64,000 bases of DNA from Eukaryota sp. GEM-RC1 (GCA_040285855.1 JAUFOQ010000016.1:1302001-1366000); one strand, 5' to 3'; positions 5,456 to 64,000 are shown, counted from the stretch's first letter. A program made the numbers and translations. The notes: generated by a model not told the origin, from the sequence alone.

Positions 5456-6433
5456 CTAATAATCATTATCCTCAAAGTCCAGATTGCATATCTGGAAATG
5501 GTCACCTTCCTTATCCTCATAATGTCTGCCAAGAGATAATACAGCGCTAGATACAGAAGTCATCATCCCTTTAAAGATAGCAAACACAATTCGATTTTTC
5601 CAAAATCTAAGATCAAATGTCCTAGATGTGTTTTCTTTTACAATTTTCACAAAGATTTCAAGTAATGATGTTGTAGATGATTCACCTAAAGAACCGTACA
5701 GTGAAAATACAAAAGAGTACAACAAGTAATTCGAGTGTGAAGCCGAATTCAATAATTTCAATTTGGCACAATATTTTTATTTTTTAAATTTTTCACCAAT
5801 CAACAGAGCGTTTTTAGCATTAGATTTAGCAAGTTTCTTGTTGGAATCATTACAAACATCGATAGACATAACATCAGCAATAATGAAAGAACCATCGAGA
5901 CCAGGAAATATGACATCACCACGGCTATTTCCAAACGATTTGTCGACATCTGAATCATCAAACAAACCAGCCAGAACTCGTTCTAAAAAGGAAACTATTC
6001 CAAAAGATTTACACATACAATATAATTGATCCCTTACTGAATCATGAACCTTACTTCTAAAAGAAATAAAACGGTTACAATTCAATAAATGTGTAGGTGT
6101 TACAGATTGCCCACATTGGCATTTCAAATTATGTGGAAGGTTATCAGGCCAAATAAATGACCGTAAACACATGTTTAATGACCAAGAGTTATCATCAAGA
6201 TAAAGATCGTAAACTTGAGGGATTTGAGTAATCAGACATGAAACAGAGCTATTAGAAACATCCGGTAAGACATTTGCAAAAGCGGGATTTTTTTCCTTGG
6301 CCATACCAAGTCGAACAATATAATCCAAGCTTTCAAAAATATTTGTCAGTTTCTGTTGTAAACAGCTTCCAGGAATTTGAGACACAGATTCTGGGAAACA
6401 CTGAGACCAAACGTCAAAAGGTAATTTGATCAA
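5456..6433 (-). mobile_element. 5'-truncated RLE-type non-LTR retrotransposon (CRE/R2-like C-terminus), frameshifted
   Basis: CQCG...HLLNC knuckle, HDSVRD, RGDVI...ADV (PD-D-like), FSLYGSLG; homologous to the 7133-8354 and 60621-61490 copies. Confidence 0.8.
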
Positions 6434-6582
6434 CGCTTTGATTAATAACTAACAGTGTTAGAATTAGCTTATTAAACGATCAGTACAATGGACTTTAACG
6501 ACAACAAACAGATACACACGGTCCATTTACAAACATATAACAGAGGAGTACCATCAGATTCAACAACTATTCGCTACAAACC

Positions 6583-8925
6583 TGTAGGAATATTCCATAA
6601 AAAACCATCAAACGCAGTGCATAAAAGATGAAAATCATTGAAAAATTGCAAACACGGTTAAAGTGCGAATGAAACAATGGAAAACTTACATGTAGGTTTT
6701 TGTCGAAACCAATTAATGTAAATTACTGAATGTGAATCTATTAAGTATACTTCAATTGAGTTCTTTCCTTCAAGTAGAACCACCATCTTTATTATAATTA
6801 ACAGATATTGGACGTGTTGTGTATCTCACAAAGCAAGAATTTTTCAAAACCCCTAAATTCAACCAACAAATACACACAGACAATGTACATTCCACACACA
6901 GAGCAATTGCCACAGGTCATCGTTCTCGAAGATTTACAATAGAAAAACCCAGTTTGTAGCACGCAGAAATGCACTTGTCATTTTCATCAGAAATGCCGCT
7001 CACGGATCCAATAGTGTTGTCTGTAATGGACATCCTTTGCGGGAGCCTTTGTATGTATGTTGGAATGACGTGTCAGTCATCGACGATGAGCTGTCTTCCA
7101 CTAGACGGAGCCGCATTGACTGGTGAGCTGGAGGTTCTCAGATCCTCATCTTGGTGGTATTGGTTTCACTTCGTCTAAATGGTGGACCAAATCTGCTTTC
7201 ATTGGTGGTGGTAAGAATTTTGTCTTTGAGTTCTGTAGACGGTACCCAAGTCAAGAAAATCTTCTTGTTTCGACAAGTAGTTGTTTCTTGGTAAATTTGA
7301 GATCAGAATTGTCACTAATTTCACCTGACCTCTGGCAAACTTGTTTTCCAGCAGATATTTGTGAAATTCCAGAACGATGTGTCACCTCGTTAAAATTTGC
7401 TCTTAAGAAACTCCAAAAACACCTTTTAAAACATTTTGAATGTCTGGATTTTAAAATTCGACTTGGCTCGGCCAAAGAAAAAAATCCAGCTTTCGCAAAT
7501 TTTTTAATCGATTTAAAGGACAGTTCTTCAGTTGCTTTGATTAACCAAATTCCTCAGATTTATGGTTTGTTGTTGAATGATCATCAATGGACTACAACAT
7601 TCAGACTTCGATGTTTCTTGTGGCCATCTAATTTACCCAATGATCTTCAATGCAAATGTGGTAAATTAGTTACTTTTTCTCACCTTTTGAGTTGCAATCG
7701 TTTCATTACTTATAGAACTTGTATTCATGATGCTGTTAGAGATCAAATTCATGCAATGTGTAAGTCCTACAAAATCGAATCTTTCGTTGAGCCACTGTTG
7801 AGATCACTGGAAATCAATAATTCAAAAAATAGTGATTCTGATAAGACTTTTGGTAAACGAAGAGCTGATGTTATAGTTCCATCAGTTAATGATGAACTAA
7901 CCGTTGTTGATGTGATTACTGTGGATGTTTGCAAAAAAAGTGCATTCAAGGATGCTAAAACTGAAGTTTCGCCACTGAATTCTTCAGAACAATACAAGAG
8001 AAACAAATATGATGAACCACTGACTGCTCTCAAACATATTAGACATGTTGAGTACAAATTATGTCCTTTTGCAATTTCAATTTATGGTCGACTTGGTAGA
8101 GATGCTCTTTGTTTTCTCTCTGATTTTGAGAAAGTGGTCAAAAAAGAATGAACAAGAAATTTGATTTCAAATTTTGGTTGAATCGTATTGTTTTTACAAT
8201 ATTTAAAACAATTCCTATCATGATTTCAAAAGCTCTATTAGCTCTCAGTGTTTTTTATGAAGAAAAAGCTGATGTGAGTTTTAATGGCAATGATTGTTGC
8301 TTTAATGATATTGAATTCTAGTATTTGTGTTTATTTTAATGTTTTTAATAAAGGGGTGAGCTGGAAAGCGTGTCGGTCAGTGTGATGATTGTGGGGTATG
8401 GACGAGGCCAGATTGATGGAGCAGTCATCACCCACAGCCCTGGACTAGAGGAAGATCGCAGTTCATTTTTTTTTTGAGGTGTCGTGCGTCAGGAAAGCGA
8501 CTGTGTTTGTCCATGTGGACCATTCTCTTTGTCTAGCACTGTTGTGTATCCTCTGTTATTTTTGTTGTTGTGTGGACTCGATCACCAGAAATAAGTGATA
8601 TAAGACATCTCTTTATGACTATTTCAATAAAAGATCTGTACAGAACACATGTTTGCAATATCAAAACATGAGTGTTAGGAAAGCTTACATGTAGACACTT
8701 GGAGAAGCCATAACACAATCTTCTTTATTCAATGATTGAAACCATCGTTTCTGAAACTCCTATCTCTAACAAGGAGGTTCAAGAGGCAATCTCATTGTTC
8801 TTGGACAATGAACAGAATGGACTTGATGAAAAGACTTATGTATCGATACTCTTTATAATAGTCTTGCTGAAAGTTATTGAGGAATTATGAGTTGGTCCTG
8901 TCTTATCTCTGTTTTTGGTCCACAT
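6583..8925. repeat. Dispersed ~1.1 kb repeat of unknown class, interrupted by the RLE insertion at 7133-8354
   Basis: 6583-7132 plus 8355-8925 align colinearly with the uninterrupted copy at about 55565-56750. Confidence 0.85.
7133..8354 (+). mobile_element. 5'-truncated RLE non-LTR retrotransposon with 10-11 bp target-site duplication
   Basis: CKCG..HLLSC, IHDAVRD, RADV..VDV, KRNKY, PFAISIYGRLG; GGTGAGCTGGA duplicated at 7122-7132 and 8355-8365; empty site at 56100-56110. Confidence 0.9.
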
Positions 8926-14679: not shown

Positions 14680-15564
14680 TAGATGAGTCGCCTCGACTCA
14701 ACTGCACTTTTTACGAGTCGACTCGACTCAACTGATGTAGCGGAGTCGACTTAGTCGACTATTTGAGTCGATTGCACAGATCTCTTTCCCAAGTCGAGTC
14801 GAGTCGAGTCGACTTAAACAATGTCTGAGCCGAGTCGAGTCGACTCAAGTCATTTATTACGTTGCATCAAATTATCCCACATGTGGTTTATATATTATCT
14901 TCCATTAAAAAGTTCAAGATTGAATACTGAAACAACACCAATTGACTTTCGTCTTTGTGGTTAAAAAAATCAAGTGTAGTATACTAACAACGTTACTACA
15001 TGTAGTGCTCAAATGATTTTTGTTAAACCAGTTTCTTGTTTCTGCTCTTTGAGTGTTTACCTCCAACAAAGACCTGTAGAATTCAGCTCTTTCTCCAGAT
15101 GAGAAATCTACTCTCAATCAAGGCCTAGAACTGCTTAAACCGTTCTTCGCTGTCACTGAAGCTATTTCGGGAGAATCGTACCCCACCATGAGTTTTCTCG
15201 TTCTTTGAGTGACGAAAATATTAGAGCATCTGCATGTTTGCAGTCATGGAGCATCTTTCTTGGTGATGAATTTGCGTTATAGGCTACTTCAGTACTTATA
15301 GACTGTATACTAATAGCTTTTCTTGTTTCTTGTTATAAAAAAATCCTGCATTTTGCATTTATTTAGACGAATGAATTTCAATGATTGGGCTATTGTTACT
15401 GTCGCTACTCAATAGTCGACTCGAGTCGACTCAAAGCCGAGTCGAGTCGACTCAGATAAATAATTAGTCGAGTCGAGTCGACTACACGATTCGTAGAGCC
15501 GAGTCGAGTCGACTCAGATAAATTTCTAGTCGAGTTGAGTCGAGTCGAGTCGTGCACAGGTCTA
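14680..15564 (+). mobile_element. Non-autonomous hAT element, copy 1, with an inverted left end
   Basis: Right TIR TGCACAGGTCTA; AGTCG/CGACT subterminal arrays; transposase relic LLKPFFAVTEAISGESYPTMS; flanks AATTTTTTC and AATTTTTC; near-identical to 35458-36308. Confidence 0.88.
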
Positions 15565-22592: not shown

Positions 22593-23288
22593 ATGGATGC
22601 TGACAGTTTGCTTCTTCTTGCTGCAGAAAGAGATGATCTGACAGGTGCGGGACAGATTCTCTCAGCTGGTGGTAATATCAACTGTAGAGACTACAAGGAA
22701 AACACACCACTACACATTGCTGCAGCTCGATCAAACTGGAGAATGTGTAGATTTCTATTGGACTTCTCTCACTGCTACAAGAACCCAAGAAATGATACAG
22801 AAGACACACCATTGTCATTATCTGTGTTGAACAAACATCCTGAAACTGTAATGACTTTATTAGAATACAAATGTGATGTGAACACAAAAAACATTGATGG
22901 GGTCAGTCCTCTTCATATTGCTTGTCAAGTTAGGGATGAACAATCAGTGAGAATGCTTCTAAGCCATGGTGCTGATCCTTCCACTGTTGACAATGATGGA
23001 AATAGCCCACTTCACATGGTTTGCACAGATCCTATATCAGTTGAATTAGCTGAGATGTTGCTAATTGCTCACGCATCAGTTAATGCTAGTAACATTGAGG
23101 GGTTCACCCCATTGGAGTTAGCGGTACAAGAATCTGGTCACAATGTCAAGATCCTTGTTGATCTATTACTCTCAAAGGGGGCAATTGTAACTGAGGATGC
23201 TATTAGTAACGCTACAGATCACAATATCAAATCAATGTTGATCGAGATAGCGTGTTTAGAAGCAGGAAAACACAGTGAACTTGTGTAG
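22593..23288 (+). CDS. Ankyrin repeat protein
   Basis: TPLHIAA, TPLSLSV, SPLHIAC, SPLHMVC and TPLELAV repeats. Confidence 0.95.
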   Translation: MDADSLLLLAAERDDLTGAGQILSAGGNINCRDYKENTPLHIAAARSNWRMCRFLLDFSHCYKNPRNDTEDTPLSLSVLNKHPETVMTLLEYKCDVNTKNIDGVSPLHIACQVRDEQSVRMLLSHGADPSTVDNDGNSPLHMVCTDPISVELAEMLLIAHASVNASNIEGFTPLELAVQESGHNVKILVDLLLSKGAIVTEDAISNATDHNIKSMLIEIACLEAGKHSELV

Positions 23289-23303
23289 AAATCTTGTACT
23301 CGT

Positions 23304-23460
23304 ACTGTGAATTTCATTCCAAATGCATAAGGGCATAACCCTTCACATTTTCATGATCTCATGAGCAAGCTCGTAAGCAAACTCATGAGCAAAACTCACA
23401 GTTTGAACAAATAAATGTCCTCATTCGCAAAGTCTTTTAAGACGAGCTAACTTCATAGAT
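23304..23460 (-). ncRNA. Candidate Fanzor omega-RNA scaffold (guide predicted to continue from 23303 downward)
   Basis: Directly 3' of the Fanzor stop; two blocks identical to 63618-63734; identity stops at ...GAAATTCACAGT; 12-bp closing helix with the internal ACTGTGAGTTTT; nested AAGGG/CCCTT and GTCTT/AAGAC hairpins. Confidence 0.72.
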
Positions 23461-26343
23461 TCAAGATTCCTGATCTTTCTGGTTTACGTGTGAGTCCTTG
23501 GGTACATCTTTCTTAGGCTTATTTGGACAAGTTGTTTTGTTATGTCCAGGTTGAGAACATATACGACACTTGTTAGGACCTCTGACTTTTGTTAGAGGAC
23601 GCTTTGCTTTACCCTTACCCTTACTCACAGTCTTTTTCTTTGGAATCTGATCTGTATTCCCGCCATCCACGACAGGTGTTGTTTGAGATTTTGGTCTCTC
23701 GAGGATGGCAGGTCTACCTTGACCTTGAATGGTTCCATTTACAATATTGTAAATATTGATAGCAGAGTTGAAGTCTCTATTCCAGAGGACATGACATTTA
23801 GCACATTCAACTAAGCCCCATGGTGAGACTTTGTTGTTCTTCAATCTTTCTTTCGAAAATGTCAACTGGTCAGTCCATTCATCATCAAAGTTACGCTGCA
23901 CAATATTGTCTAATTGATTGTGTTCCATAATTTCCTTTTTTAATTCTTTCTCTTCCTTCTGTAACTTCTTCTTCCAATGAGGATCAGTGACTTTTATCCT
24001 TTCAGGATTGGAACAGATACCTTCGTCGTTTCTGGAAACACATGCAGAGCAACATTTGCTGGTCTTAAATTCATCAACTAGGAACACTTTAAATCCAAAT
24101 TTTCTTAATAATTTCCGAATTGAAGCACCTTTTACAGTAGATGCTTTACCTCTTCTTCGACGAAAAGCAGTGTCGTTCCAGTCTCCATACCCAACAACGA
24201 CTTCATCTGGGTTTCCAAACTGGAGAGCAAATCTGTGAAGCATGTTTTTCTCACTTCGTTCCTTTCTTGAATACTGTGTGAGACGATTCCTTCTAAACCA
24301 CTTTTCTTCGTAAATTCCTTCAGTATTTCTTTGATCAGTAGTGGGTGATCGTAGTAAAGAACAGGTAATTTCTTTACCAAGAACAAAAGCAGAATACAGA
24401 GTCAAATCACAAGATTTACTACCTGGCGAGTTAGAGCCCCATTGATCTAAAATTTGTTGCCCATTTATGTCAATGCGTCTGCCATCTGGAATGTGAATAA
24501 ATTGGGTAGAGTATTGTTGTAACCGTTCAGATTCAGATAAACGGTGGAGATTATATCGTCTTATTTTCTTCTCCAGCTTCCTCTTCTTTCTCTTAGCTCT
24601 TTTTCTTTCCTTCCTTGTTTTTTTCTTTTCCATGGAGACTTTTTAATATCGGCATTGCGCTCCCCAGCAGTGTATCTGAATACTTTCCAATCGTCACGAT
24701 TTTTCAACTTGACAGTTGATGGTTTGTCAATAGTGGGTGCGTCTTTCCAATCCTTCAATTCCTTTTTCAATTTTTTCAAGCTTCCTTTTTTCTTTGATGA
24801 TTTTGGAGAAATCTTTCTTCTTCTGAGATTGGCTGATGTATCGAAACCTTCGATTTTCTTTTCCTCCTCAGATTTTAAAGAAGCACAATACATCAAATCA
24901 TGCTGATTAGGGTCAATAACAACAATTCTTTTGGATTTCAAATTTAAGTTTTGAATTTCTGTGGAACTCAAAGAATCAATGTACCTTTCAGTAGCTGTGT
25001 AGTCAACTGCTTTCACCTTCTTATGAGGATTTCCTCTCCCATCAAGCAGATCTTTCCGCATCATCATTAAACTACAGCTAACTCCATCTGTAGAAATAGA
25101 ACTGTATTTGAAGTCATGAGACAATGACTTTGGAAGACACTTTGGTTTCAAAACTGAGTGCCAAATATCTTTTCGAACGTCATCAAAGCTACCTTTCATT
25201 TCTGATGCATAAACTTCTTTAAACCATGTAGTATCCAATCTGATATGATTAGGAATCAGTGATTTTGTTAGAGGAAAAGGATTATTGGCAGTAACACCAG
25301 GACAAGAGTCCTCAACAAGACGTTTCAAATACACTGCATGACTTAAGAATTTCAAAGGATCTACTTTTTCAGCATAATAGATTGTTTTCTCCATTTTACC
25401 TTCAAAAAAAGTAAACAAATAGTTAAAAAATAGTAAACTCAGTCTAGAATTGGGATCAGGAAACACTTCAACATCTTGAAAATTAATTTTTGAAATTTCC
25501 CCATTAATGATCAACTGTCTGACTTCATTAAGCTTTGTACACAACTCTTGTCGTAGATTCTTATCAGTAAGCTTGTTAAGTCTATCTTTTTCAGGGTAAC
25601 CAAATTAAATACTTGAAAAACATATTCATGAAAGTGATCACTCATGTTAGTCTTGTAATTCGTTATAATTTCAGTAGCCATGTAATGCAATATACGAGAT
25701 AAACGATGACTACTGGGAAACACAATCCTATCAAGTCCAACAGATCGAGCAGCTATTTCTAAACGAGGAATATAATACATCAAGAAGTGTTGAGCAAACT
25801 GATTTTGAGTTGAGCCATCATTTGTGTTAGAAATTATGTTTTCTAAAGATTCTTGCACAGTCTCAATATGATTCTGATTGTTTACAAGTTTGTTGTCCCT
25901 AATCGTCATCATAGACAACACTTGTTCCATTGATTTCAACGTAAAAAAATTCTTCCAGTCTGGCAATTCAATTTTGGCAGTTTGAATTTTAGTCCAAAGG
26001 TCAGGTTCAGGTTTAGGTTCATCACTCGCATCTTCAATATTTTCTAATTTAATAGGAGGAGTAGCAGCATGGATAGACTCTGAATGTACATCTGTTTCTT
26101 CATCAGTTGACTCATCTGTATCAGAATTCATTTCTTCCTTAACAGTTACATTTGGAACAGTAGCAGGCAGTAACTTCTGAATGTAACCTATAATACCTGA
26201 ATGGTGAAAATTATGAACAAAAAATGTTTCAAAAAGAGAGTACTACGGACTCTTACTTGGTGAGCTCTCTTAACACGAGATTCAATAAATTTAACCTTCG
26301 CTTTGGACACAACATTGTCTAGTCGTTTCTTAACCACTTTCAT
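23461..26343 (-). CDS. Fanzor1 (eukaryotic TnpB-like RNA-guided endonuclease) moiety, about 960 aa, with C-terminal CCHC knuckle; split by three homopolymer frameshifts
   Basis: ISTDGVSCS; RuvC-I VVIDPN (D 24912-24914); VGYGDW then LVDEFKTSKCCSAC (E 24070-24072); CAKC..WNRDFNSAINI (D 23773-23775); GRPAIL; N-terminal VKKRL..VKRAHQVRVRSTLFLK and YKTNMSDHF; CRICSQPGHNKTTC. Confidence 0.9.
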
Positions 26344-27300
26344 TGGTGACTTTGAACGTAATGTTTGTTTTTTGGGATCCAATAGGTCAGCCAACAAGTA
26401 CTCAATCAGAGGTAATTGTTGAATTGAGTTCATCAACAATAGCGGTCTTGTCGATTCCTTGGCCCAAAGTTCATTTACTTTCTCCAAATTTCTTACAAAT
26501 TTCTTTTTAATCTTATCGACCTTCACTTTGGGATTGTCTGGAACTAAAACATTAATACTGTCAATTATGCCATGCAAGTTTTGGACATTATTGACCAATT
26601 GAACTTCATCAGGATCAGAGTCATGATTAAGTTCTTCCAAGCGTTTGACAGTTTCATTTTTAGAAAAATTATTCATTTCAAGAAAAATTTGAACAACATT
26701 TTCCAAAAAACGGCCACCAGTAAAGACATAAAAATTCTTCAGTACAGCATTCAAATCGAGACTAAAAAACGGACCAAAAGTTGTTTCCTTACACCATTTG
26801 TTGAACCAAAAGGGAATGTAGGGTTTAAATTCTGGAAAAGTAAACGTTGTATTGATTTTGAGGACTTGACAACGTGATACAAGAAAGGGAAATGTATCTA
26901 AGTGAAAGTCATAACTCACAAACAATCGTGGACAATGTTGAGTAATGAAGGAAATGAAGTTTTTAAGCATACTGGATTCACTATCTGAAATATGTAAGGT
27001 ACACAAATCCAAGTTTGTAGTATCAAAGTTGCCATGAGAAAATAAATGTTTTTCATTAAACTCATTGTGATCAATGATCTCGATGAAAATTGATACAATA
27101 GGATCAACAGAAGAATCACGTTTAACTTCTAATTGATCTTCAGCTTCACCTTCAACAGTTTCAATGTCATCATCATCTTCTTGAACAAGTTGAACATTTC
27201 TGCCATTAATTCTTTCTTTTTGGCAAAATCACTTTGAACATGAATTAAACAAAAAGTTGGTAGATTGTTCCAAAGTAGAGGGGATTTAAGAAAGTCTTGA
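26344..27300 (-). CDS. Degenerate family-B DNA polymerase 3'-5' exonuclease-like domain, in frame with the Fanzor N-terminus
   Basis: DPIVSI, SESSMLKNFISFITQHCPRLFVSYDFHLDTFPFLVSRCQVLKI, SLDL, FLENVVQIFL; the same ORF (26188-27012) runs into the Fanzor N-terminal motif. Confidence 0.6.
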
Positions 27301-27337
27301 ATTTGTATTTCTTCTTCTATAGGCTCAGTGTGTAGAT

Positions 27338-28369
27338 TTACTTCCATTTTTGGATTTCTTCTTGAATTGGCGATGGATACGACATAATGGAGGCCTTAAT
27401 TTTGGGTGGTAGTTCAGATGGTGGTACTTCAGATGATTCCAATGTGGACATACGGCGGTGAGTCTTTCGTATTGGAGTGTCACCAGTTGAAACAAGGGAG
27501 CTGGTAGTTCTAAATTTATTTCGTTGAATTAAAGGTGAACCTCGTGGTGATGGAATATCAGAAATTTTGGCCTTTCTTTTTTTAGTGCTTAAACCAGTAG
27601 ATGCTTTAGTGCTAGCAAGACGCTTACCTGAGATTGGTGACGCAGAAACACGCGACAACTCAACAGGACTAAAAGTTTCAAAATGTTCCAAAATTTTACT
27701 TCGAGACTCGTGAACAGCAATAGTGGTATTACCCAGCAGTTCTTTAACATCAGTCCACCTTATGACCACAGATTGATCTAAATTCATTAAAAGTTCAATG
27801 TATTCGAGAACACAAAAACCAGAGTCAGTTAGAGTATGTTTGATATTTGATGGAATAAATTCTATATTTCTGGTTTCACACATTGACAACACTGAATAAA
27901 TTTTTGACACAATTGTAAATAAATTGGAGGAAGATGGTGCAACTGGCGTTTGGTTAACAGGAAATTCTCTGGCATAATCATCCTCAACGTAGGTCGGATC
28001 AATGAATAAAATATGACTTGTAGGAGATGAAATGATCAGAACAATTAAACCCCAATGACGACCATCAGCAGTAAGATCACACATTGCACTATTGACAGGA
28101 ACAAGTAGCATTTGTTGGTTGTTTTGACCACATTGGAAGAATTTCTGCGTCAAAAAATCTGAAAATGGATATTTATTATAGGGTTGGTCACCATATAATA
28201 ACGGATATAAATCAGTTGGCCTAATTACATAGTCATAAAAGATTAAACCTGTTGATTCCACAAGTATTTTGGAATATTTGATGAACAATTGATCGTCAAC
28301 ATAAGTAAACAATTTCTGAATCTGTTTACGGAGATCTGCAGCATTAAGTTCATTGTTAACTTCACACAA
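27338..28369 (-). CDS. Second Ulp1/C48-like domain (catalytic Cys replaced by Ser) plus basic, Ser/Pro-rich linker
   Basis: YVDDQLF, LLVPVN..GRHWGLIVL, FIDP, HTLTDSGFCVLEY. Confidence 0.72.
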   Translation of the reverse strand: MCEVNNELNAADLRKQIQKLFTYVDDQLFIKYSKILVESTGLIFYDYVIRPTDLYPLLYGDQPYNKYPFSDFLTQKFFQCGQNNQQMLLVPVNSAMCDLTADGRHWGLIVLIISSPTSHILFIDPTYVEDDYAREFPVNQTPVAPSSSNLFTIVSKIYSVLSMCETRNIEFIPSNIKHTLTDSGFCVLEYIELLMNLDQSVVIRWTDVKELLGNTTIAVHESRSKILEHFETFSPVELSRVSASPISGKRLASTKASTGLSTKKRKAKISDIPSPRGSPLIQRNKFRTTSSLVSTGDTPIRKTHRRMSTLESSEVPPSELPPKIKASIMSYPSPIQEEIQKWK

Positions 28370-28375
28370 CCTTTT

Positions 28376-29332
28376 TCAAAAAAAATCAGTCGATAGATTA
28401 GACAAACTTTCATGTGTTGTAAGAATTTGTAAGTACTTTTGAACATATGCAATGACATAAATTCCACAATCACTTGGAGTCTGAGATTTCGGGACGTTTG
28501 CATAACGTATCGTGAAACTTGGCATTTTTTCTCTGAATTTATCAACAATGTGGTTCAAAAAGTTGGAGTTCAGTATTGGATCAATAACTGTTGCAACATT
28601 TTGTACACAATCCAATAGAATAACACCCCAATGAGATCCTGAAAATGTGCGTGACGCAGACAGGGCAGTCATACCGTCATTGATAGGAGCAATGAGGAAT
28701 CGAGTACCGGTGGTTTTAGCAATAAGAATTTGACGATCTACAGTTTGTTTATGTTCAGGTGAAAGATCAGTAATTAATCCATTCATCACACTAGAGGGGA
28801 TACTGTATAGATCAAATGCTAGTCTAGCAGAGTTAAAAAGGTACTGACAATATTGAAAGATAGCATCGTCATCTATCCATTGGCCAGGATTCAGATACTC
28901 TAGGGAGTCTTTGGACAACGGTCCGGGATTGGATTCCACGTCACCATTTATGGTTAAGTCTTTTTGAAACGGAGGATGAGAAGAGATTAATAAGCAAGCG
29001 AAGGGACTAAAGCACGAGCAGCAACCACAACTTCCTACAGCATTACCTTTTCTAATGAGGATGCGTTCGGAAGAAGCAGCGAAGGGACTAAAGCACGAGC
29101 AGCAACCACAACTTCCTACAGCATTACCTTTTCTAATGAGGATGCGTTCGGAAGAAGCAGCGAAGGGACTAAAGCACGAGCAGCAACCACAACTTCCTAC
29201 AGCATTACCTTTTCTAATGAGGATGCGTTCGGAAGAAGCAGCGAAGGGACTAAAGCACGAGCAGCAACCACAACTTCCTACAGCATTACCTTTTCTAATG
29301 AGGATGCGTTCGGAGAGAGATGATTTTGTCAT
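28376..29332 (-). CDS. Polyprotein N-terminus: four Cys-rich 27-aa repeats, 2A-like motif, Ulp1/SENP8-like C48 protease
   Basis: DLTINGDVESNPGP; LNPGQWIDDDAIFQY, APIND..GSHWGVILLD, VIDP, SQTPSDCGIYV (His-Asp-Cys with oxyanion Gln). Confidence 0.82.
   Translation of the reverse strand: MTKSSLSERILIRKGNAVGSCGCCSCFSPFAASSERILIRKGNAVGSCGCCSCFSPFAASSERILIRKGNAVGSCGCCSCFSPFAASSERILIRKGNAVGSCGCCSCFSPFACLLISSHPPFQKDLTINGDVESNPGPLSKDSLEYLNPGQWIDDDAIFQYCQYLFNSARLAFDLYSIPSSVMNGLITDLSPEHKQTVDRQILIAKTTGTRFLIAPINDGMTALSASRTFSGSHWGVILLDCVQNVATVIDPILNSNFLNHIVDKFREKMPSFTIRYANVPKSQTPSDCGIYVIAYVQKYLQILTTHESLSNLSTDFF
28998..29314. repeat. Perfect 81-bp tandem repeat, about 3.9 copies
   Basis: Units start at 28998, 29079, 29160 and 29241. 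Confidence 0.97.
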
Positions 29333-29951
29333 GGGAAGAAAAAGACTAATTCACTGATTCACTGTAATCTGCAATGTAAGAACATCATACACTGAAAAAG
29401 ATATCCTAAAAGTTATAGTTCATCTGATTATTAACAGAAGAGCGTACGTCCATCAGTGAGATTGTCAAGACTAGGGGAATACTTTATACCTACATATTGT
29501 TAATCGATACTCGCACATCCATCATCATCCATTTTCAGCTTTATGTTAAGCGTACACATAAACCAATACTGTTGTATATTCACTAGCTACAATAAATTAT
29601 TTATTGGACTGAATCAGAATTTCTGAAACAGGCATGTAATTCTTATGTAACTCTACATCAGTCGAACAAAATGACTACAATCTTTCTCTTTCGGACGACA
29701 GTGATTTGTCCTTTGATACGTACGCTAGTGTTGCAATTATTAAACATATATCTCTATACAAAAAAATGAATCTCATGAAGAGATAGCGTGTGTATTCTGT
29801 TTGTTGGTGTTTTCTATAGTATATTGTAATAGTATAAGCTGTTCGATATGATAATTCATTACGTCTTTATTCAGACTAACGCAAAGAGAAGTTATAAACA
29901 TAGTTTTAAAATACAAAGCTACTTCCAGTAACTACATAACTGTAACATCAA

Positions 29952-32900
29952 TCAATCCATTAACTGTTTGATTTCATCAGGAACACAAATTTCCTTGGCA
30001 TAATACTGAATGTATTTTGTGAACAAATTTTTAATGTGAAAACCGTCGTCTTCAGATGTCCAAAGAATTTTCAATACATCAACTTTTACATGAAACGTAC
30101 ATAGTTGATTCACATTCGAGGGAATGTCATATATGATACAAACAAGACGCTTGTCAACAACGGATTGACTTTTGTTCAACAAATTATATGCGACCTGTGT
30201 TACTGCTACAAGAACTGCTTTCTTCGGATTTACCAAAAATTTTTCGAAAATATTGGACTTCTTCTTACCGTCGATTTTTTGTACAAAGTGAGTATACATC
30301 GAGTGGAAGCCTTCTTGACAATGATGCTACGAGTCCTCTGCCAGTTTCCACGTTTTTAACAGTGATAATGATTTTTTCTTCTGTTAACAAATGGCTGTGC
30401 AATAAGTGTTGCAAGTTGTTCAGTTTTGAGTCAGATACAATCAACTGTGATTTTTCCAAACATGAGGGAATTGATGGCGGTACAGTTGATGGCGGTACAG
30501 TTGATGATGGAGATAAAACTTCGTCAGATTCTTCTCCATGTGAACCAATTAAATCTCCATATTCGTCCTCTGAGTCATCATCAGGAATGACAACAAAATT
30601 TTGAGTTGTAACCTTTTTTACAATTGGTTGTTCAACTTCTTTAATAGATAATTGTTGTTGTTCAACTTCTTTAATAGATAATTGTTGTTCTGTTGCAACT
30701 CTTTTGACACTGTTTGTTTCACCTTTTTCATCTGTTTTTGATCGTCGCTTCAATCTTTCAGGTATTTCAGGTGGTGGTAATCTAAAGAACTCTTTAACTG
30801 GTGGTTTGTGATACTTAGGGGATACACATTTCTTTGACGAAAGGGAAGGTTGTCCATCAGGTTCTGCCCAACGAAGAGTCACAATTTTGCCAACATTGGT
30901 TACACAATAGATTTCTGGATTGACACTTGATGGAAAAATTTTAATGAAATTATTAAAAGGCGGTGGATCTGCAAGGGTAAAGCGCTCATCAACGTACAAT
31001 TCTGTGGTTACTGCATTGACAATACCAATATGTAACTGGGCTGAAACAAATATGATATAATTGGGATACCCAAATAAGCCACAAGCATCAATAATGTCAT
31101 GTTCAGTATTTACAATGTGTTCCACACTGACATTACTTTCGGAAATATGTACAATATATAAGGAATTATTAGCTATAACAATCCGTTGATTGCTAAAATT
31201 GGGATCTGGTCCAAATTTTGTGGAATGTAAGCCATCAAAGCAGTTAGATAAATCAATGAAATCGGTTGAATTTTTGGCATAACAAATTGATTTTTCTGTC
31301 AGCACCAGATGCATATATGATTTGGAAAATCTGATATATGTTGAATCAATGACATTTTCATTGTTTGGAAGATCAATCTTGTGAACATATTTACAATTTT
31401 CCTTTACAGCAGGCACACATACCAGAACACCATTTGTTTGACTGATATACACGTTTTTACCCACAACGATTATAGAACTATGTTCATTGATTGACTTCGG
31501 TTCTGTTTCCTTTAGCAAGTCAATATATGTTTCAGAATCAAAAGAGAAGAACTGAAGTCAAACAAACCGATAAGAACTTTGTTTTCTATAGGCAAAAACA
31601 CCCACATAGCAGTTGGGTAACCTGGAACATCGTTTTGAACCGCCATCGACAAGTAAGTATAATCAGGAAGCTTTAATGGATTCCAAAAACCTTGATCACC
31701 AACTGTCCATAACATTAACTCTCCTGCAAGAGTCAGAATAATGATGTACTGCCCAGATTCAGTGATAACTGCATTTTTGATTTCAGATGCACATGATTGT
31801 GTGTAACTATCTGAGAAATTCATTGTATTAATCTGTTCCGAAGTAATGGGCAACATGTCAGTGGTAACAAGGGGACATGGCGGCTGTTCACATGAGTAGA
31901 GGTATGTGGACTCTGGATCATATTCCAAAACTGACGTCTCAATTTCAAATTCTTTTCAGACTCAGAGAACAACGATTTTCCTGCGGCAGAGAATGTAGAT
32001 AGATATTTATACAGTACATCCAAGACTTGAAACTTTCCACAATTTGGACATTCAGTATTGACACAGCATTTGAAATTACTGTCGGCAGCAGAGTAATTCA
32101 ACAGAAAAGGCTGGCGTCCACCAACATCAATGGGATTCAGATCAGTAACTAAATCACGTTGGACATTAACGTCGATATCGTTTTCTTGAATCAAATTAAT
32201 TTGATGATAGAATATTGATGAATCAATTTTTAATCTTTCAGAGAGATATAAAACAATTCTACATCGATTGAGACAACCAATGACTTCTCTCAATTGTGAT
32301 AAAACATGGGGATCGTATACATATTCCATTTGATCTTCATTGTTGTAAATAAGAACCTGAGTTGATTGGATATATCCAAATGTGATATTAGAAAACATCA
32401 GTTGAATAAACAAATTCAATAATGAAGGTTAAAACTGAAGTTTCGCCACTGAATTCTTCAGAACAATACAAGAGAAACAAATATGATGAACCACTGACTG
32501 CTCTCAAACATATTAGACATGTTGAGTACAAATTATGTCCTTTTGCAATTTCAATTTATGGTCGACTTGGTAGAGATGCTCTTTGTTTTCTCTCTGATTT
32601 TGAGAAAGTGGTCAAAAAAAAGAATGAACAAGAAATTTGATTTCAAATTTTGGTTGAATCGTATTGTTTTTACAATATTTAAAACAATTCCTATCATGAT
32701 TTCAAAAGCTCTATTAGCTCTCAGTGTTTTTTATGAAGAAAAAGCTGATGTGAGTTTTAATGGCAATGATTGTTGCTTTAATGATATTGAATTCTAGTAT
32801 TTGTGTTTATTTTAATGTTTTTAATAAAGGGTATAATGAAGGTTGAAAGAAGCAGCACATAGAAGGAAATTGTTTTTGTGAAGACACGTAAACGCCAGAA

Positions 32901-33982
32901 TAATTGTGACAACTGGTTGCAGGCAAACGAGGAAAAAGAGAATTGTCAAACTTAAAATCAATGAATTTTACAGTGCCATTTAGAGCGTCACATTTAAAAG
33001 GTAGTTGATAGTAGACATTTTCAATATTCGGTTCCAATTGAACTTCAAAGTTGTCTTCAAAAGGGATAAGTATGCGTCTGTTTAACAATCGAGCAATTTT
33101 TGTGCTTGTGTCACGAACTACAGTATTGTTGTCATTCACAGATTGGAACTTTTCACCTGAGAAAGTCACATTACATTCCACACCACATATCAATGGAAAA
33201 AAGAATTTGTGATATCTTGAGGCAGACACATTTTCAAACATTTTGGCAAAAATAAGAGGAGTAATAGTTTCATTTGAATTTTTAAGGGTTAACATCAACT
33301 TATCTGGTTCTTTGGGTAACAACTGTAAATTAACGCTATTCTGTCCTGCAGATTGTAATATCTCATTCAAATCATTGACTTCATCTTTCAATAGTCCACA
33401 TTCAGATTTACAATGAACAGGCACTTCAGTTGTAGAACTTGTAATTGATAAATGTCTTTGACTTCGCAATACTATTGTATTGGTTGGATATGATGATACA
33501 AACAATAGAGTCAACTTTTTTGGTTCTGTGAGATCACAAAGTTCTTGCAAAAACATATGATCCATAACAGAAGACAACTTTTGTGTGAATTCGTCAGTTG
33601 GATTGGACTTGTAGAGACTAAGCAAACCCTTAACACGGTCTGCGTGTGCAATTAACTTTTGAAAAATTATGCTCAAAGATTCCATATTAGGGTCAGATTT
33701 TAACACGTCAAAATGATTCTTCATCCTTCGCAAAACACGTATTTTCGTGACAAGTGTATCACAAAACAGTTTTAGTGACTTAATATTAAAATATTTGAGA
33801 ATACGAACATTGATTGTACCAGACAATAATCGAAACAAGAAATTCAACATAATGATCAAATCTGAATGTTCATGATTAGTCTTATCAACATACAATTTCA
33901 AAAATTTACCGAACTTTGTAACCTGATTGACATTGTCTGTGTAAAACTTAAAATTGAACAACTTGACATCAAAAGCACACAA
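29952..33982 (-). pseudogene. Large orphan gene (about 1200 aa reconstructed) interrupted by a retrotransposon fragment
   Basis: Removing 32431-32832 and one TSD copy fuses ...FQPSL to LNLFIQ... in frame; remaining breaks lie at A4/A4/T6 runs; CCVNTECPNC motif and a beta-rich region. Confidence 0.7.
32431..32832 (+). mobile_element. 402-bp 5'-truncated RLE retrotransposon copy with 12-bp TSD
   Basis: Essentially identical to 7957-8355; ATAATGAAGGTT duplicated at 32419-32430 and 32833-32844. Confidence 0.93.
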
Positions 33983-34030
33983 CAGGATAATTCCTGGAAC
34001 TGATTGTTTTAGAAGAAAGCAATTAACTCA

Positions 34031-37000
34031 ATGGCACCAACCACTATACACAACATCAATCTCACAGATGACCAACGTGAGATCTTTAACGCAATCACTA
34101 CCAGCAGACACAACTTCTTTGTCACTGGTGGTGCAGGATCAGGAAAATCTTATCTTTTGCATGCTCTCAAATACTGGTGGAGTAACGTCGGATCTCGTCT
34201 CATGCGTGCTAATGGTGAAATCTTCTTCACTGCAACAACTGGGGTTGCCTCAACTGTTTTTGGTGGACAGACCATACACTCACTGTTTGGTTATAAGTTT
34301 ATGAAAGAAGAAGAATCCATACATGATGTTATTAAATGTATGCCATCAAATGTCAAATTATTGTTAAAAAAAATTACAGCAAGAAATACAATGTTAATCA
34401 TTGATGAAATTTCAATGTTGTCCTCCAAATTGTTTCAACGGGCGAGTGACATTTTGAGTGAGCTTATGTACACTCCAAAATGTCACTCCCCGAAGAAACC
34501 ATTTGGAGGAATTCAGATAATTTGTTTTGGGGACTTTCTTCAATTAGCCCCTGTTGTGAAAAGTCTTGATGGAAAAGGAAATCGAAAAGTGGTAATTTCT
34601 GATTTCGCTTTTTCATCAAGTGCTTGGAACAGTTTAAATTTTAAATATTGTGAACTGGCTGGTAGTATTCGACAGCAATCAGATTCCCAATTTTTTAATT
34701 TTCTAAATCAATTGAGATTGGGTCTGTTAGATAATTTTATGAAATCAATTCTGCGTACTCATTTCGAAACAGCAGAATCTGTTGAAAACCCAACAATTTT
34801 ATACGGAAAGAATACTGATGTTGCTAGAGAAAATTTTAAACAATTCAAACTTCTGGCCAAAATTCAGATTCAATTGAATTTGTAGCTGTTGACAAATTCA
34901 ATGAATCTGAATTAAAATCTCAAATCAGAAAAAGAAGTTCTAGATTTCCAGTCAATGAATCTAATTTGGAAAAATATTATGACATTGAAACTTCTGTGCT
35001 GACAAGTCGCTTGGATGACTTTGCTGAAAAAAAACTAGAATGCGTTGTGGGTGGACAAGTGATGTACACTCAACATAAGCCTGAACTTGGACTAGTTAAT
35101 GGTTCAAAAGGAGTTATTGTTAATTTTTCAGATTCATATATTGATGTTCGGTTCAACGCTGAAGCAGAACCGAAAAGAATCAGTCAGTCAAGGTTTGCTA
35201 TCGAACACTTGAACGAAATCGGAAGACCTGTTCAAGTGGCGAAAAGAATTCAGTTTCCGCTAAGACCTTGCTGGGCGATAACAGTGCATCGATCCCAAGG
35301 TTTAACAATTGACGGGATTGAAGTTGCTATCCAGTTTTGGGAATATGCCCAACTTTATGTGACCTTAAGTAGGGTTAGGTCTTGGAGGAGTTTAAAGATT
35401 TTAAGTATTGGAAGAAGTTATCCGGTACCAAATTTGGAATTGTACCAATGGTATTATTAGACCTGTGCAATCGACTCAAATAGTCGACTAAGTCGACTCC
35501 GCTACATCAGTTGAGTCGAGTCGACTCGTAAAAAGTGCAGTTGAGTCGAGTCGACTCATCTCTTTCCCAAGTCGAGTCGAGTCGACTTAAACAATGTCTG
35601 AGCCGAGTCGAGTCGACTCAAGTCATTTATTACGTTGCATCAAATTATCCCACATGTGGTTTATATATATTATCTTCCATTAAATAGTTCAAGATTGAAT
35701 ACTGAAACAACACCAATTGACTTTCGTCTTTGTGGTGAAAAAAATCAAGTGTAGTATACTAACAACGTTACTACATGTAGTGCTCAAATGATTTCTGTTA
35801 AACCAGTTTCTTGTTTCTGCTCTTTGAGTGTTTACCTCCAACAAAGACCTGTAGAATTCAGCTCTTTCTCCAGATGAGAAATCTACTCTCAATCAAGGCC
35901 TAGAACTGCTTAAACCGTTCTTCGCTGTCACTGAAGCTATTTCGGGAGAATCGTACCCCACCATGAGTTTTCTCGTTCTTTGAGTGACGAAAATATTAGA
36001 GCATCTGCATGTTTGCAGTCATGGAGCATCTTTCTTGGTGATGAATTTGCGTTATAGGCTACTTCAGTACTTATAGACTGTATACTAATAGCTTTTCTTG
36101 TTTCTTGTTATAAAAAAATCCTCCATTTTGCATTTATTTAGACGAATGAATTTCATTGATTGGGCTATTGTTACTGTCGCTACTCAATAGTCGACTCGAG
36201 TCGACTCAAAGCCGAGTCGAGTCGACTACACGATTCGTAGAGCCGAGTCGAGTCGACTCAGATAAATTTCTAGTCGAGTTGAGTCGAGTCGAGTCGTGCA
36301 CAGGTCTAGGTATTATTCAACTTTTCATCCTGTTAAACCATCCACTATTGATTTGTATGTTTTGGGAAATCAACATTGTCTTCAACGAGATTTCAATCAT
36401 TTTAATTCATTGTTTGCAAACTTTTGTGCAGAATCGAGTGAACCAATTATGGATGATGTTGTTGTTCCTGAAATTGTTCATGGTGTTGATGAAATTGTTG
36501 ATGAAGTTATTGTTGATAATGTTGAGGAACAAATTATTGAAAATAATGATAATCAAATTATTGACTTGGAAAAAATCATTTAAACCATTTCGAAAAATCA
36601 AATTTATTTGAAACAGAAGCACTACTATCAGGATCCGATTCTGGTGATGAATCTGATAGTGATACAATTTCAACAAGTTTAGATGATTTTGTTGTAAATG
36701 ATGAACTTGAAGAAGATGAAACTAATATTCCTCCCAAATTTATTAATTGTGACTCAATTTTTAACAAAAATTCCCCAGAGATTGGTGTCAATAAGTCTAA
36801 ACTTCCTCAGTTACCACGAGGCAACATTACTCTACCATCGCTTCCCCGTTTGAAGAAAACCCCTTTACCAACGAAGAATTTATTATTAAAAAAGAATGTC
36901 AGTGCTGGTATAGAAAGAAAAAGTTCCCAAGTATTTCCTCTTATTGATGATGAAAAGCGATTTTGTCTCAAGGAAGTTCAAACTGAAAGCTTTGAAAATG

Positions 37001-37491
37001 AAAAATGTGATTCCATATGTGAATATCAACAAACTGACAATATGCCTTATGAAACAATATCATTATCTCCTATTTTGGAGTATAATCGTGTTGCTACTTC
37101 AAAACAATTGAGAGTGGACTTAACTATTGGAATTCAGTCAATTGTCGATAATGTACTAGATTGTATTGGATCTGAATATGCATCAAGTATGGAAGTGAAA
37201 ACAATAAGAAACTGTTACATTACCGATGTGATTAATAGGGATAATGTTGATGAACGTTATTGTAGTGATGTGCTTGTGGAATTGTTTCATGTTTTGAAAG
37301 AGTATTTGAAAAATGATGAAAAGATTGGGATGTGTGTTTTATTTGAATTATATTTAATTTTGAAAAGATTGGAAAATATAGGTAATTTTGATAGTTTCAT
37401 TTTGTGTTACACATCTTGTAAAACACATCTTGTAAAACACATCTTGTATTACAAATCTTGTATTACAGATCTTGTGTTACACATCTTGTAA
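34031..37491 (+). CDS. Pif1-family (SF1B) helicase with long acidic C-terminal extension; interrupted by a hAT element and frameshifts
   Basis: TGGAGSGKS, TATTGVA..GGQTIHS, IIDEISM, FGDFLQLAPV, RQQSD, GLVNGS, QFPLRPCWAITVHRSQGLT, QLYVTLSRV; frame continues WYY-STFHPVK once 35458-36316 is removed. Confidence 0.9.
35458..36308 (+). mobile_element. Non-autonomous hAT element, copy 2, intact ends
   Basis: TIRs TAGACCTGTGCA / TGCACAGGTCTA; 8-bp TSD GGTATTAT (35450-35457, 36309-36316); transposase relic LKPFFAVTEAISGESYPTMS. Confidence 0.93.
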
Positions 37492-37585
37492 AACACATCT
37501 TGTATTACACATCTTGTGTTACAGATCTTGTGTTTCAAATGTTGTATTACAGATCTTGTAAAACACATTTTGTGTTACAGAAAGC
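37400..37585. repeat. 14-bp minisatellite (ACATCTTGTAAAAC / ACATCTTGTATTAC variants)
   Basis: About 12 degenerate tandem units overlapping the end of the Pif1 gene. Confidence 0.9.
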
Positions 37586-37767: not shown

Positions 37768-37995
37768 ATTACAAATGTTGTAGTTACAAATGTTGTAGTT
37801 ACAAATGTTGTATCACCAAATGTTGTATCACCAAATGTTGTAGTTACAAATGTGGTATCACCAAATGTGGTATCACCAAATGTTGTAGTTACAAATGTGG
37901 TATCACCAAATGTTGTAGTTACAAATGTTGTATCACCAAATGTTGTAGTTACAAATGTTGTATCACCAAATGTTGTCATTACAAATGTTGTACAT
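37768..37995. repeat. 15-bp minisatellite (ACAAATGTTGTAGTT / CCAAATGTTGTATCA variants)
   Basis: About 15 tandem units of two alternating variants. Confidence 0.95.
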
Positions 37996-60165: not shown

Positions 60166-60620
60166 GGCGTTGTTAAAGTAATCTAAACTACAGTACATCC
60201 AAAATAAACTCTACTACAACGGCTGTACATGACGAATTTAACACTCAGACACTTCCTGATAAACATTACCACTTGATGGTAATTGATTTAATAAGTTTGA
60301 GCACTGATCGTGTCAGAGAAAAATGAAATAGTCTTTGCCAAATTGATTAGTTGAATCTCATATTCAGAGACCCAAAAATTAAGAACTGAGAAGCCATGCC
60401 ACCAGTATTACCAAAAAGGGAAACAACAAATGGAACAGATATTAATTCTGATTGAGCTTACCAACTCCATTGGAAAACAACTCTGTTTGACGTTTTTCGG
60501 CTGTCTTTGGGTGGTTAAAACCTTTTGAAGTTATGATTTTGACATAAGTGTGAGCACATTGATCTAACATAAACCTAAATTGACTGGAATCAATTAAGAT
60601 ACCACGTAAGTCACCTAGAA

Positions 60621-61490
60621 TTGTTATTCAAAATTGTTTATTCCGAAAGCTTGGACTTTAAAAACCGTATTAGCTTGGCTAAGACTAAGAGTCCCGCTTT
60701 TTGTGCATTTTTGAATGATATTTCTTCAAGCGCTGCGTCTTCATTTGTTTCTCGTTTGCCAAGAAAATTTTGTTTTAATCTTAAGGACCATGGATGGCTT
60801 ATTAACATGAGACTTAGGTTAGGTTTATGGCCTTCAGGTCTTTTGAAGCATTCTCCTTGTCTTTGTGGTCGTTCAAAGGCTTCAAATTTTCATCATTTAG
60901 TTAACTGTCATCAATTTATTCATTTTCGATCAATAATCCACAATAGTATCCAGGATACATGTTTGGATATGTTTAATGCTAATGGTTTTCATGGAAAAAT
61001 TGAACCTTTACTTGCTAATCTTTCTGATCAGCCAAAAGTTGATAGAAGTCGTGGTGATTTGATTGGTCCTTGGTTATCTTGTCAGGAAATTATTATGGAT
61101 CTCACGACTGTTGATCCTTGTAATTCAAGATCAATTTCCAAAATTTTTGATGATGATTTTTCTGCTCTTGAAGTGGCTGAAAAGGGAAAAAATTCAAAGT
61201 ACTGTCACTTAATTAACCAATTGAATGTTGACAGGTACAATTCTTTTGTGTTTCAACCTTTTGCGATGTCGATATACGGTAATATTGGACCAGCTGCACA
61301 AGGTTTTTTAACTTCCTTTGGTAAATTGTGTTCTGAGTATGGTAAAGTTTTCAATGAAAATTTTTGGTTGAGTAAGTTAACGTTTGCGTTGTTTCGTTCA
61401 ATGCACAGATATTTTAATTCAATTTTAGGTAAGTTGTTCGGTGATGGACAGAAGGATCATAGTTTAGATACTTTAGTTAGTGTCTGTTAG
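60621..61490 (+). mobile_element. RLE retrotransposon C-terminal ORF, a third subfamily
   Basis: RLRLG, CLCG..HLVNC, IHNSIQD, RGDL..MDLT, KNSKY, PFAMSIYGNIG. Confidence 0.82.
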
Positions 61491-63617: not shown

Positions 63618-64000
63618 ACTGTGAATTTCATTCCAAATGCATAAGGGCATAACCCTTCACATTTTCATGAGATAACCCACAGTTGACAAAGTCCTCATTC
63701 GCAAAGTCTTTTAAGACGAGCTAACTTCATAGATTCAAGATTCCTGATCTTTCTGGTTTACGTGTGAGTCCTTGGGTACATCTTTCTTAGGCTTATTTGG
63801 ACAAGTTGCTCTGTTATGCCCAGGTTGAAAACATATACCACACTTGTTAGGACCTCTGACTTTTGTTAGAGGACGCTTTGCTTTACCCTTACCCTTACTC
63901 ACAGTCTTTTTCTTTTGGAATCTGATCTGTATTCCCGCCATCCACGACAGGTGTTGTTTGAGATTTTGGTCTCTCGAGGATGGCAGGTCTACCTTGACCT
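63618..64000 (-). mobile_element. Second copy of the Fanzor element 3' end (C-terminus plus candidate omega-RNA), running off the window
   Basis: Near-identical to about 23304-23725; different flank beyond 63618. Confidence 0.93.

Follow-up and report, generated by a model that had tools for sequence, protein, structure and literature searches.

A Fanzor1 element in Eukaryota sp. GEM-RC1 predicted to encode its nuclease in one frame with a 2A peptide, protease domains and an exonuclease-like domain

The characterised Fanzors are, to our knowledge, stand-alone nucleases. Here we describe a Fanzor1 element on the minus strand of a 64,000-nucleotide stretch of DNA from Eukaryota sp. GEM-RC1 (GCA_040285855.1 JAUFOQ010000016.1:1302001-1366000), which we call the window throughout. 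We observed the order of the domains, their catalytic residues, the read-through of the junctions between reading frames in related copies, leaders and proteases that are swapped between copies, and a structured 3' end shared with a second copy. The locus is probably one copy of a multi-copy Fanzor1 element, that is, a single gene of about 1,958 codons with a leader shed at a 2A peptide, encoding a protease-pseudoexonuclease-Fanzor protein and homing by means of an omega-RNA.

The nuclease resembles SpuFz1, PpFz1 and GtFz1 in its RuvC D-E-D residues, its GDW motif, the Glu just before the zinc finger and its structured 3' end, but it differs from them by an N-terminal extension of about 1,000 residues, which comprises the 2A, both protease domains, the linker and the exonuclease, by insertions behind RuvC-I and within the zinc finger, and by a CCHC knuckle at the C-terminus. 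Subfamily-specific 5' regions joined to a near-identical Fanzor-coding 3' part, with no complete transposase, are known from MCi-2 of Mucor circinelloides and CRe-1/2/3 of Chlamydomonas (PMC3627910, in part). In contrast to these elements, target duplications were not found here, and the portion of that article used does not describe translation of the variable 5' DNA into the Fanzor through a 2A; the words protease, exonuclease, fused and fusion do not occur in its main text. A 2A near the N-terminus of one long open reading frame (ORF) is found in the ORF2 of several non-LTR (long terminal repeat) retrotransposons (L1Tc/Ingi, CR1, L2 and Crack; PMC3708506, in part), and some non-LTR ORF2 proteins combine 2A with a ubiquitin-type protease (PMC13405545, in part). 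Unlike them, our element gave no match to a reverse transcriptase in its own ORFs or in the related copies scanned and no detectable APE endonuclease, and its downstream enzyme is predicted to be an RNA-guided nuclease. A C48 protease is fused to the enzyme of a mobile element in Ginger1, Mutator, NeSL and Utopia (PMC2836005 and PMC4640811, both in part), but the partner in those Ulp1 transposons is a DDE transposase or a reverse transcriptase, whereas here it is a Fanzor and an apparently active and a Cys-to-Ser copy of the protease stand in tandem. The exonuclease domain matches PF03104, as does the proofreading exonuclease of family-B DNA polymerases (PolB), but no polymerase domain accompanies it and its acidic residues have been lost in the window family; a DnaQ-like exonuclease has been reported on LTR polyproteins (PMC6338049, in part). 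Each passenger domain has a precedent on other mobile elements. A natural fusion of a Fanzor with a protease or an exonuclease was found in none of the main texts of PMC3627910, PMC10530073, PMC10432273, PMC10711439, PMC11423790 and PMC13565253, as far as the portions used extend and with search terms that varied, and the combination of protease, exonuclease and Fanzor with 2A was not found described in literature searches, with supplementary domain tables and Repbase entries being places that may hold such proteins.

The window is eukaryotic, with intact ORFs for a tetratricopeptide repeat (TPR) protein, Vps26, Sin1 and an ankyrin protein in the Pfam and ORF scans. Seven minus-strand ORFs (frames A to G, Table 1), five A/T runs and an in-frame TGA were all found where the original prediction had placed them, and its proposal that they form a single long frame was supported by the sister copies and by the unbroken ORFs of a relative. 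The junctions are named after the frames that they separate: A/B is the TGA at 28376-78, B/C lies at 27347-51, C/D at 27217-21, D/E at 26219-24, E/F at 25587-91, and F/G at 24640-44 or the adjoining A-runs. With five bases added and the TGA bypassed, the frame runs for 1958 codons from the ATG at 29332, 1821 of them from the Pro after the 2A. Pfam matches above the curated cut-offs were obtained with the first frame (Peptidase_C48, E 3.9e-5), the fourth (DNA_pol_B_exo1, E 5.4e-6) and the last (Cas12f1-like_TNB, the TnpB zinc ribbon, E 3.4e-7), while a zinc knuckle match (E 0.016) fell under its cut-off; an NCBIfam scan gave no useful match. The TGA is likely a miscount of the T8 and A5 runs that flank it.

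Evidence on the breaks came from sisters, which are near-identical proteins labelled Eukaryota sp. GEM-RC1. They formed clusters of 6, 11, 7, 18 and 26 sequences, so that the family has at least 26 sequences; the members listed were 15 of the 18 and 15 of the 26 in the two largest clusters. Counting only informative sister gene models and excluding the window's own, we found junction A/B open in 9 of 9, B/C in 3 of 4, C/D in 2 of 4 (P0025 being counted as shut there), D/E in 8 of 12, E/F in 5 of 10 and F/G in 4 of 17. In a frameshift-aware alignment of the sister models with the window DNA, exactly one extra base was found at 27350, 27219, 26224 and 25589, and one for the last join at 24642 or 24627; since each open copy has one base more at these frameshifts, an invented intron cannot account for the open sisters. 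The F/G join was placed at 24640-44 in the open copies P0060 and P0069 and at the A-runs of 24618-29 in P0067 and P0068, and because P0044, P0046, P0048 and P0056 do not have the first run and are nevertheless broken in that frame, the downstream site is no less likely than the first. P0056, with a single difference from the window among the 239 residues compared around F/G, reads through two of the window's breaks, and both P0046 and P0056 are single models spanning from the exonuclease to RuvC-I. According to Pfam, Peptidase_C48 and the PolB exonuclease occur together in the single proteins P0016, P0022, P0025, P0033 and P0078. No sister model open at all six junctions was seen, which is unsurprising among some 26 copies, since the per-junction open rates multiply to about 3%. 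The frame state at F/G needed 3 changes on a tree with 18 rows, of which 3 were open, against a mean of 2.9 after shuffling. Because no copy was open at all six junctions and the state at F/G did not follow the tree, we consider with good confidence that the breaks are homopolymer assembly errors. The in-window sister has an extra A that breaks the frame where the studied copy is open, and in the second subfamily the models P0016, P0019, P0020 and P0022 all stop at the same point within the exonuclease, which is either a systematic error or a real truncation. Illumina correction commonly fails in multi-copy repeats. The assemblies that, judging from the match of label to isolate, hold the named sisters were made from nanopore R9.4/R9.5 reads with Illumina correction (PMC11316075, in part).

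In a relative, represented at NCBI by proteins under the label Eukaryota sp. TZLM3-RCL, three unbroken ORFs (1473, 1479 and 1491 amino acids) contained 2A, a linker rich in Ser and Pro, the PolB exonuclease and Fanzor1; two more members were partial (935 and 1222 amino acids). They were collinear with five of the window frames and had a sixth, weak match within the linker, and the full-length proteins had neither the protease block nor the C-terminal CCHC knuckle. Exonuclease and Fanzor were seen in frame in two lineages that are about 30% identical. With a profile of the exonuclease and the N-terminal half of the Fanzor, 527 representatives were obtained, and among the best 150 of them 8 had the exonuclease, the others looking like fragments or ordinary Fanzor1; 7 long matches (814-1033 amino acids) that were scanned had no extra Pfam domain. 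A metagenome scan with P0068 was negative (0 of 86 candidates), another with the exonuclease alignment gave 15 loci, of which none had a Fanzor or protease match and 10 matched an ordinary PolB, and a viral scan with the same alignment was negative as well (0 of 78). Within the limits of these searches, the fusion looks confined to this flagellate lineage.

The identity of the nuclease as a Fanzor1, suggested at the outset from short motifs, was supported by profile comparison. A profile of the family and its relatives matched only three solved structures at E<=0.1, namely SpuFz1 (8GKH, 1e-35), PpFz1 (9CF0, 4e-32) and GtFz1 (9CER, 7e-27), and by this comparison the family is nearer to Fanzor1 than to Fanzor2 or TnpB. 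In the family proteins including the window, the three RuvC residues were present in 19 of 19 (D), 12 of 12 (E) and 13 of 13 (D) cases; the GDW motif was present too, and the Glu lies about six residues before a split C4 zinc finger with a long insert, a spacing as in SpuFz1. All residues of the Bao and Jurka motif, D-X(125,275)-[TS]-[TS]-X-X-C4-X(5,50)-RD, were present, and the D-to-TS spacing of 279-283 lies just above the maximum of 275 because of the inserts. As a Fanzor1, the nuclease is predicted to be RNA-guided. A 60-nt GT..AG intron candidate at D/E was rejected, as it would delete the conserved Fanzor N-terminal motif. The zinc knuckle occurred in two types plus a mixed form (4, 5 and 2 of 11 family proteins), a mixing that suggests gene conversion between copies, and P0093, an internally deleted Fanzor of another subfamily, had the same knuckle.

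The PolB-type domain was indeed contiguous with the N-terminus of the Fanzor, as first noted, but the loss of its acidic residues in the window and their retention in relatives had been overlooked. In the window family HVQ or EIK/EIE stands at ExoI and D-T-F-P at ExoII, and no ExoIII motif could be recognised, so that the domain is likely a dead pseudo-exonuclease. In P0001, P0004 and P0220 of the relative, by contrast, FDVET, YNCDKFD and YC(V/L)ND were found, which we take to be the intact ExoI D-x-E, ExoII D and ExoIII Y...D, and the enzyme appears intact; ExoI and ExoII were also intact in P0112 and lost in P0080, P0094 and P0099. The relative's domain matched PF03104 at E 5e-13, and PDB matches of the exonuclease were to Pol delta, RB69 and archaeal PolB. 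A search for the origin of the exonuclease returned one unrelated PolB at E 8e-5.

The first protease, which had been read as an Ulp1-family enzyme, retained the catalytic triad of His (28633), Asp (28582) and Cys (28468) together with the oxyanion Gln (28483), and in the family proteins including the window the His and the Cys were each present in 10 of 10. Its structure model (mean predicted local distance difference test score 56) matched SENP5, Ulp1 and NEDP1 in Foldseek at E about 1e-6, and together with the Pfam match this upholds the assignment and predicts a protease removing ubiquitin-like tags; the fold matches do not separate SUMO, NEDD8 and ubiquitin as its substrate. The second C48-like domain had no Pfam match, but its homology to the first was supported by BLAST (E 5e-6), and Peptidase_C48 was found in 42% and 16% of the members of its nearest Atlas clusters (score 0.94). 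All 10 family proteins covering it had Ser for the catalytic Cys, in agreement with the proposal of a dead Ulp1 copy, and we predict that it is dead. The pairing of an active-type protease with a Cys-to-Ser copy had thus been correctly described, but not that the block is modular and missing from the full-length proteins of the relative. Three variants of the first protease were found on the same downstream body, that of the window, that of P0016 and P0017, and that of P0078, which comes without the dead copy.

Upstream of the proteases, the leader consisted of 4.0 copies of an 81-nt unit (28992-29314). The idea that its Cys repeats form a functional domain had to be abandoned: among the subfamilies, five repeat leaders were found that are in frame and unrelated to one another (periods 27, 38, 33, 76 and 27 amino acids), and since leaders are unrelated between subfamilies (at least five unrelated ones), the Cys-rich peptide is better seen as variable leader DNA than as a domain. 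Two of the five were common to several copies, so leaders mark subfamilies. The relative had three different leaders, one of them repetitive (P0220). Conservation among copies started about 20 residues ahead of NPGP, and the 2A motif noticed earlier proved to be conserved, with GD(V/I)ExNPGP in 11 of 12 proteins checked as well as in P0078 and P0220, and a deviating N-L-GP in P0006. A ribosome skip between its Gly and Pro is predicted. The first in-frame ATG after the 2A (28786) lies about 45 codons inside the protease, and the whole first protease therefore depends on a start in the leader.

At the other end, the two copies in the window shared their sequence up to 23304 and 63618, respectively, and diverged beyond. 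The last 150 nt folded with a z-score of -4.6 (-3.3 in the sister copy), and the closing stem, 23402-23304, ended on the last shared base and accommodated a 40-nt insertion in the studied copy. Among 48 pairs there was one A-U to G-U change between the copies and no compensatory pair, and the Rfam scan gave one match at chance level (E 0.49). A guide role may be assigned to the flank of about 15 nt by analogy with described OMEGA systems. Within 22593-23303, an ankyrin gene runs towards the element and ends 15 nt short of the element's right end; the predicted guide occupies exactly this gap. Of the marks of a Mariner, MuDR, hAT, Helitron, Crypton or IS607 host transposon, no transposase was matched in the element or in the upstream ORFs scanned, the window held no inverted copy of the right end, and no duplication of the right flank of at least 7 nt occurred in 29300-34100. 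The 3' clusters were larger than the 5' ones, a hint of 5' truncation as in CRe-1 (PMC3627910, in part), in a count that is confounded by fragmentation. A 16-nt match, gaatcagtgaattagt, near 29360 and 22085 was rejected, about one such pair being expected in 64 kb, and the upstream ORF 30265-31557, which weakly resembles a beta-propeller, was not assigned to the element.

Taken together, the element could work as follows. Translation would have to start in the leader for the first protease to be made whole, and the 2A would then shed the captured leader, leaving the same Pro-start protein in every subfamily. The product, of about 1,820 residues, would comprise a tag-removing protease, its dead copy, a dead PolB exonuclease, Fanzor1 and the zinc knuckle. 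The Fanzor would load an omega-RNA cut from the 3' end of the element together with about 15 nt of flank and cut the empty allele, after which repair would copy the element back, as for the homing of OMEGA systems by guided cutting of the empty site (PMC13565253, in part). The tethered protease might strip ubiquitin-like tags near the target or off the protein itself, countering silencing or degradation, and its dead copy might act as a binding module. The ancestral exonuclease may have trimmed cut ends or RNA, as it may still do in the relative, and could here be a binding scaffold. New insertions would need an enzyme supplied in trans.

Several observations weigh against this model. The sister evidence consists of gene models, not of DNA or reads, no protein spanning from the protease to RuvC-III was seen, and when long relatives were sought for the last ORF, none of the 3 matches came from the sister set. 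Junction F/G was shut in 13 of 17 sister models, and its comparison with the tree was a weak test, having 3 open rows and no starred branch. A/B is the least secure junction, because all the sisters spanning it carry another first-protease variant, 40-45% identical to that of the window, which is itself a cluster of 1. Introns invented to jump breaks were found in P0077 and probably in P0025, and the ends of P0029 and P0037 are not explained by a homopolymer. A 2A motif by itself is insufficient for an active 2A (PMC3708506, in part), and the tract upstream of the motif in the window has a single Leu and two Pro. A stand-alone Fanzor could be translated from the ATG at 26343, which lies at the N-terminal motif of the Fanzor, and neither the left end nor a target duplication nor a target-adjacent motif was found.

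Part of this would fit a real fused architecture in which the studied copy and most sisters are pseudogenes broken by slippage and only a rare master copy is intact. Such decay would agree with the want of a fully open sister, with ends away from homopolymers, with the occurrence of both gains and losses of bases, and with differences of up to 16 of 239 residues between copies, but it sits badly with catalytic and zinc-ligand residues kept in every protein examined and with the same sites being open or shut in near-identical copies without regard to the tree; ten host ORFs, chosen for being open, also had 27 A/T runs of at least 5 and no break. We regard it as unlikely. It is somewhat less probable still that the DNA frame is single but the Fanzor is made or released separately (from the start at 26343, from a second transcript, or by clan-CE self-cleavage) and does not act jointly with the protease. 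The ATG would suit such a Fanzor, the poxvirus processing proteases share the fold of the first protease, and a viral scan with the Fanzor alignment gave 10 Fanzor1 loci with no exonuclease, protease or 2A match and frames of at most 678 codons. However, exonuclease and Fanzor have stayed in frame in both lineages, no protease is present in the relative that could cleave the chain, and the only 2A in frame lies upstream of all domains.

Equally improbable is that the protease serves translation, stripping tags from ribosomes or nascent chains stalled at the 2A, with the rest of the model unchanged. The non-LTR ORF2 proteins that bear a 2A and carry a Josephin or OTU deubiquitinase at the N-terminus, and a viral OTU that relieved a 2A-related block (PMC13405545, in part), offer a parallel, and the protease lies directly 3' of the 2A in all three variants; against this, the relative has a 2A without any protease, and deubiquitinases are no better a match to the fold than SUMO and NEDD8 proteases are. 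That the breaks are real and crossed by programmed frameshifting, transcriptional slippage or small introns is very improbable: some sites do look like slippery runs and F/G is shut in most copies, but hardly any product would remain after six recoding events in a row, each site is open in some related copies, and the ORFs of the relative need no recoding.

With the fused protein as the preferred explanation, selection in two related flagellates appears to have kept a Fanzor1 in frame with enzymes whose targets are DNA ends and ubiquitin-like tags. The fusion points to the host barriers (silencing, degradation, re-ligation) facing an element of this kind and opens them to testing; the unbroken 1473-1491-residue proteins of the relative are a ready natural exonuclease-nuclease fusion for assay. 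The 2A motif is found here in a setting other than the viruses, retrotransposons and host genes that PMC3708506 and PMC13405545 (both in part) describe, and is apparently an adaptor for swapping leaders. A tentative extension, which we think possible but doubtful, is that this Fanzor lineage is a modular delivery platform, with 2A as the adaptor for leader swaps and exchangeable enzymes riding on the guided nuclease; one species would have an active end-processing exonuclease, and the other a SUMO/NEDD8/ubiquitin eraser paired with a dead trap domain. If that were true, nature would have produced guide-programmed machines for trimming ends and erasing tags, undescribed in the literature searched. 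The locus is also a warning that a long-read assembly can conceal an entire Fanzor family in the form of fragments.

Table 1. Features of the Fanzor1 element and its second copy, in window coordinates.
Feature	Position	Strand	Remarks
Variable leader	28985..29332	-	ATG 29332, then 81-nt tandem repeat, open in frame
2A-like peptide ending GDVESNPGP	28919..28984 (motif 28919-28942)	-	Conserved among copies
First protease, Ulp1/SENP/NEDP1-type (C48, clan CE)	28379..28918	-	Pfam, structure model
In-frame TGA	28376..28378	-	Between T8 and A5 runs; aligned with Glu in sisters
Second C48-like domain	27670..28375	-	His (28057) and Asp (28000) kept; Ser (27823) for Cys
Ser/Pro/Thr/Lys-rich low-complexity linker	27260..27669	-	Holds break 27347-51
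PolB-type 3'-5' exonuclease domain	26344..27259	-	Pfam; holds break 27217-21
Fanzor1 nuclease	23690..26343	-	Holds breaks 26219-24, 25587-91, 24618-44
RuvC-I Asp	24912-14	-	IDPN motif
RuvC-II Glu	24070-72	-	Motif DEFKTSKCCSAC
RuvC-III Asp	23773-75	-	CAKC...WNRD region
C-terminal CCHC zinc knuckle	23527..23568	-	Ligands kept in 11/11 family proteins covering it
3' non-coding end, predicted omega-RNA scaffold	23304..23460	-	Common to in-window sister up to ...TCACAGT
Flank differing between two copies, predicted guide	23289..23303	-	By analogy with PMC13565253 (in part)
Sister copy, 3' end, running off window	63618..64000	-	Extra A near 63914
Frame A	28376-29350	-	ORF
Frame B	27338-28375	-	ORF
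Frame C	27129-27395	-	ORF
Frame D	26188-27228	-	ORF
Frame E	25511-26242	-	ORF
Frame F	24561-25604	-	ORF
Frame G	23461-24642	-	ORF

Other parts of the window held further repeats and candidate mobile genes. Three ORFs, 5777-6448 (-), 7120-8151 (+) and 60579-61490 (+), looked by eye like the zinc-finger and restriction-like endonuclease end of non-LTR elements, a likeness that we presume from familiar motifs; they had no Pfam or NCBIfam match where scanned, and are a possible source of mobilising enzymes in trans. A PIF1 helicase gene, 34013-35460 (+), with a Pfam PIF1 match at E 2e-32, was split over 34013-34885 and 34840-35460, and the overlap of its frames contains short A runs; it is possibly another assembly break or a mobile helicase. 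A near-identical pair of about 800 nt (14681-15564 and 35459-36308), with AGTCG-rich repeats at both ends, resembled a miniature inverted-repeat transposable element (MITE). A 424-nt copy of 7934-8355 was found at 32408-32831, between the minus-strand ORFs 32807-34027 and 31820-32428, where it may interrupt one gene. Finally, two adjoining tandem arrays, 37398-37581 (14-nt units) and 37768-37992 (15-nt units), were located at the end of an unannotated ORF of 308 amino acids.

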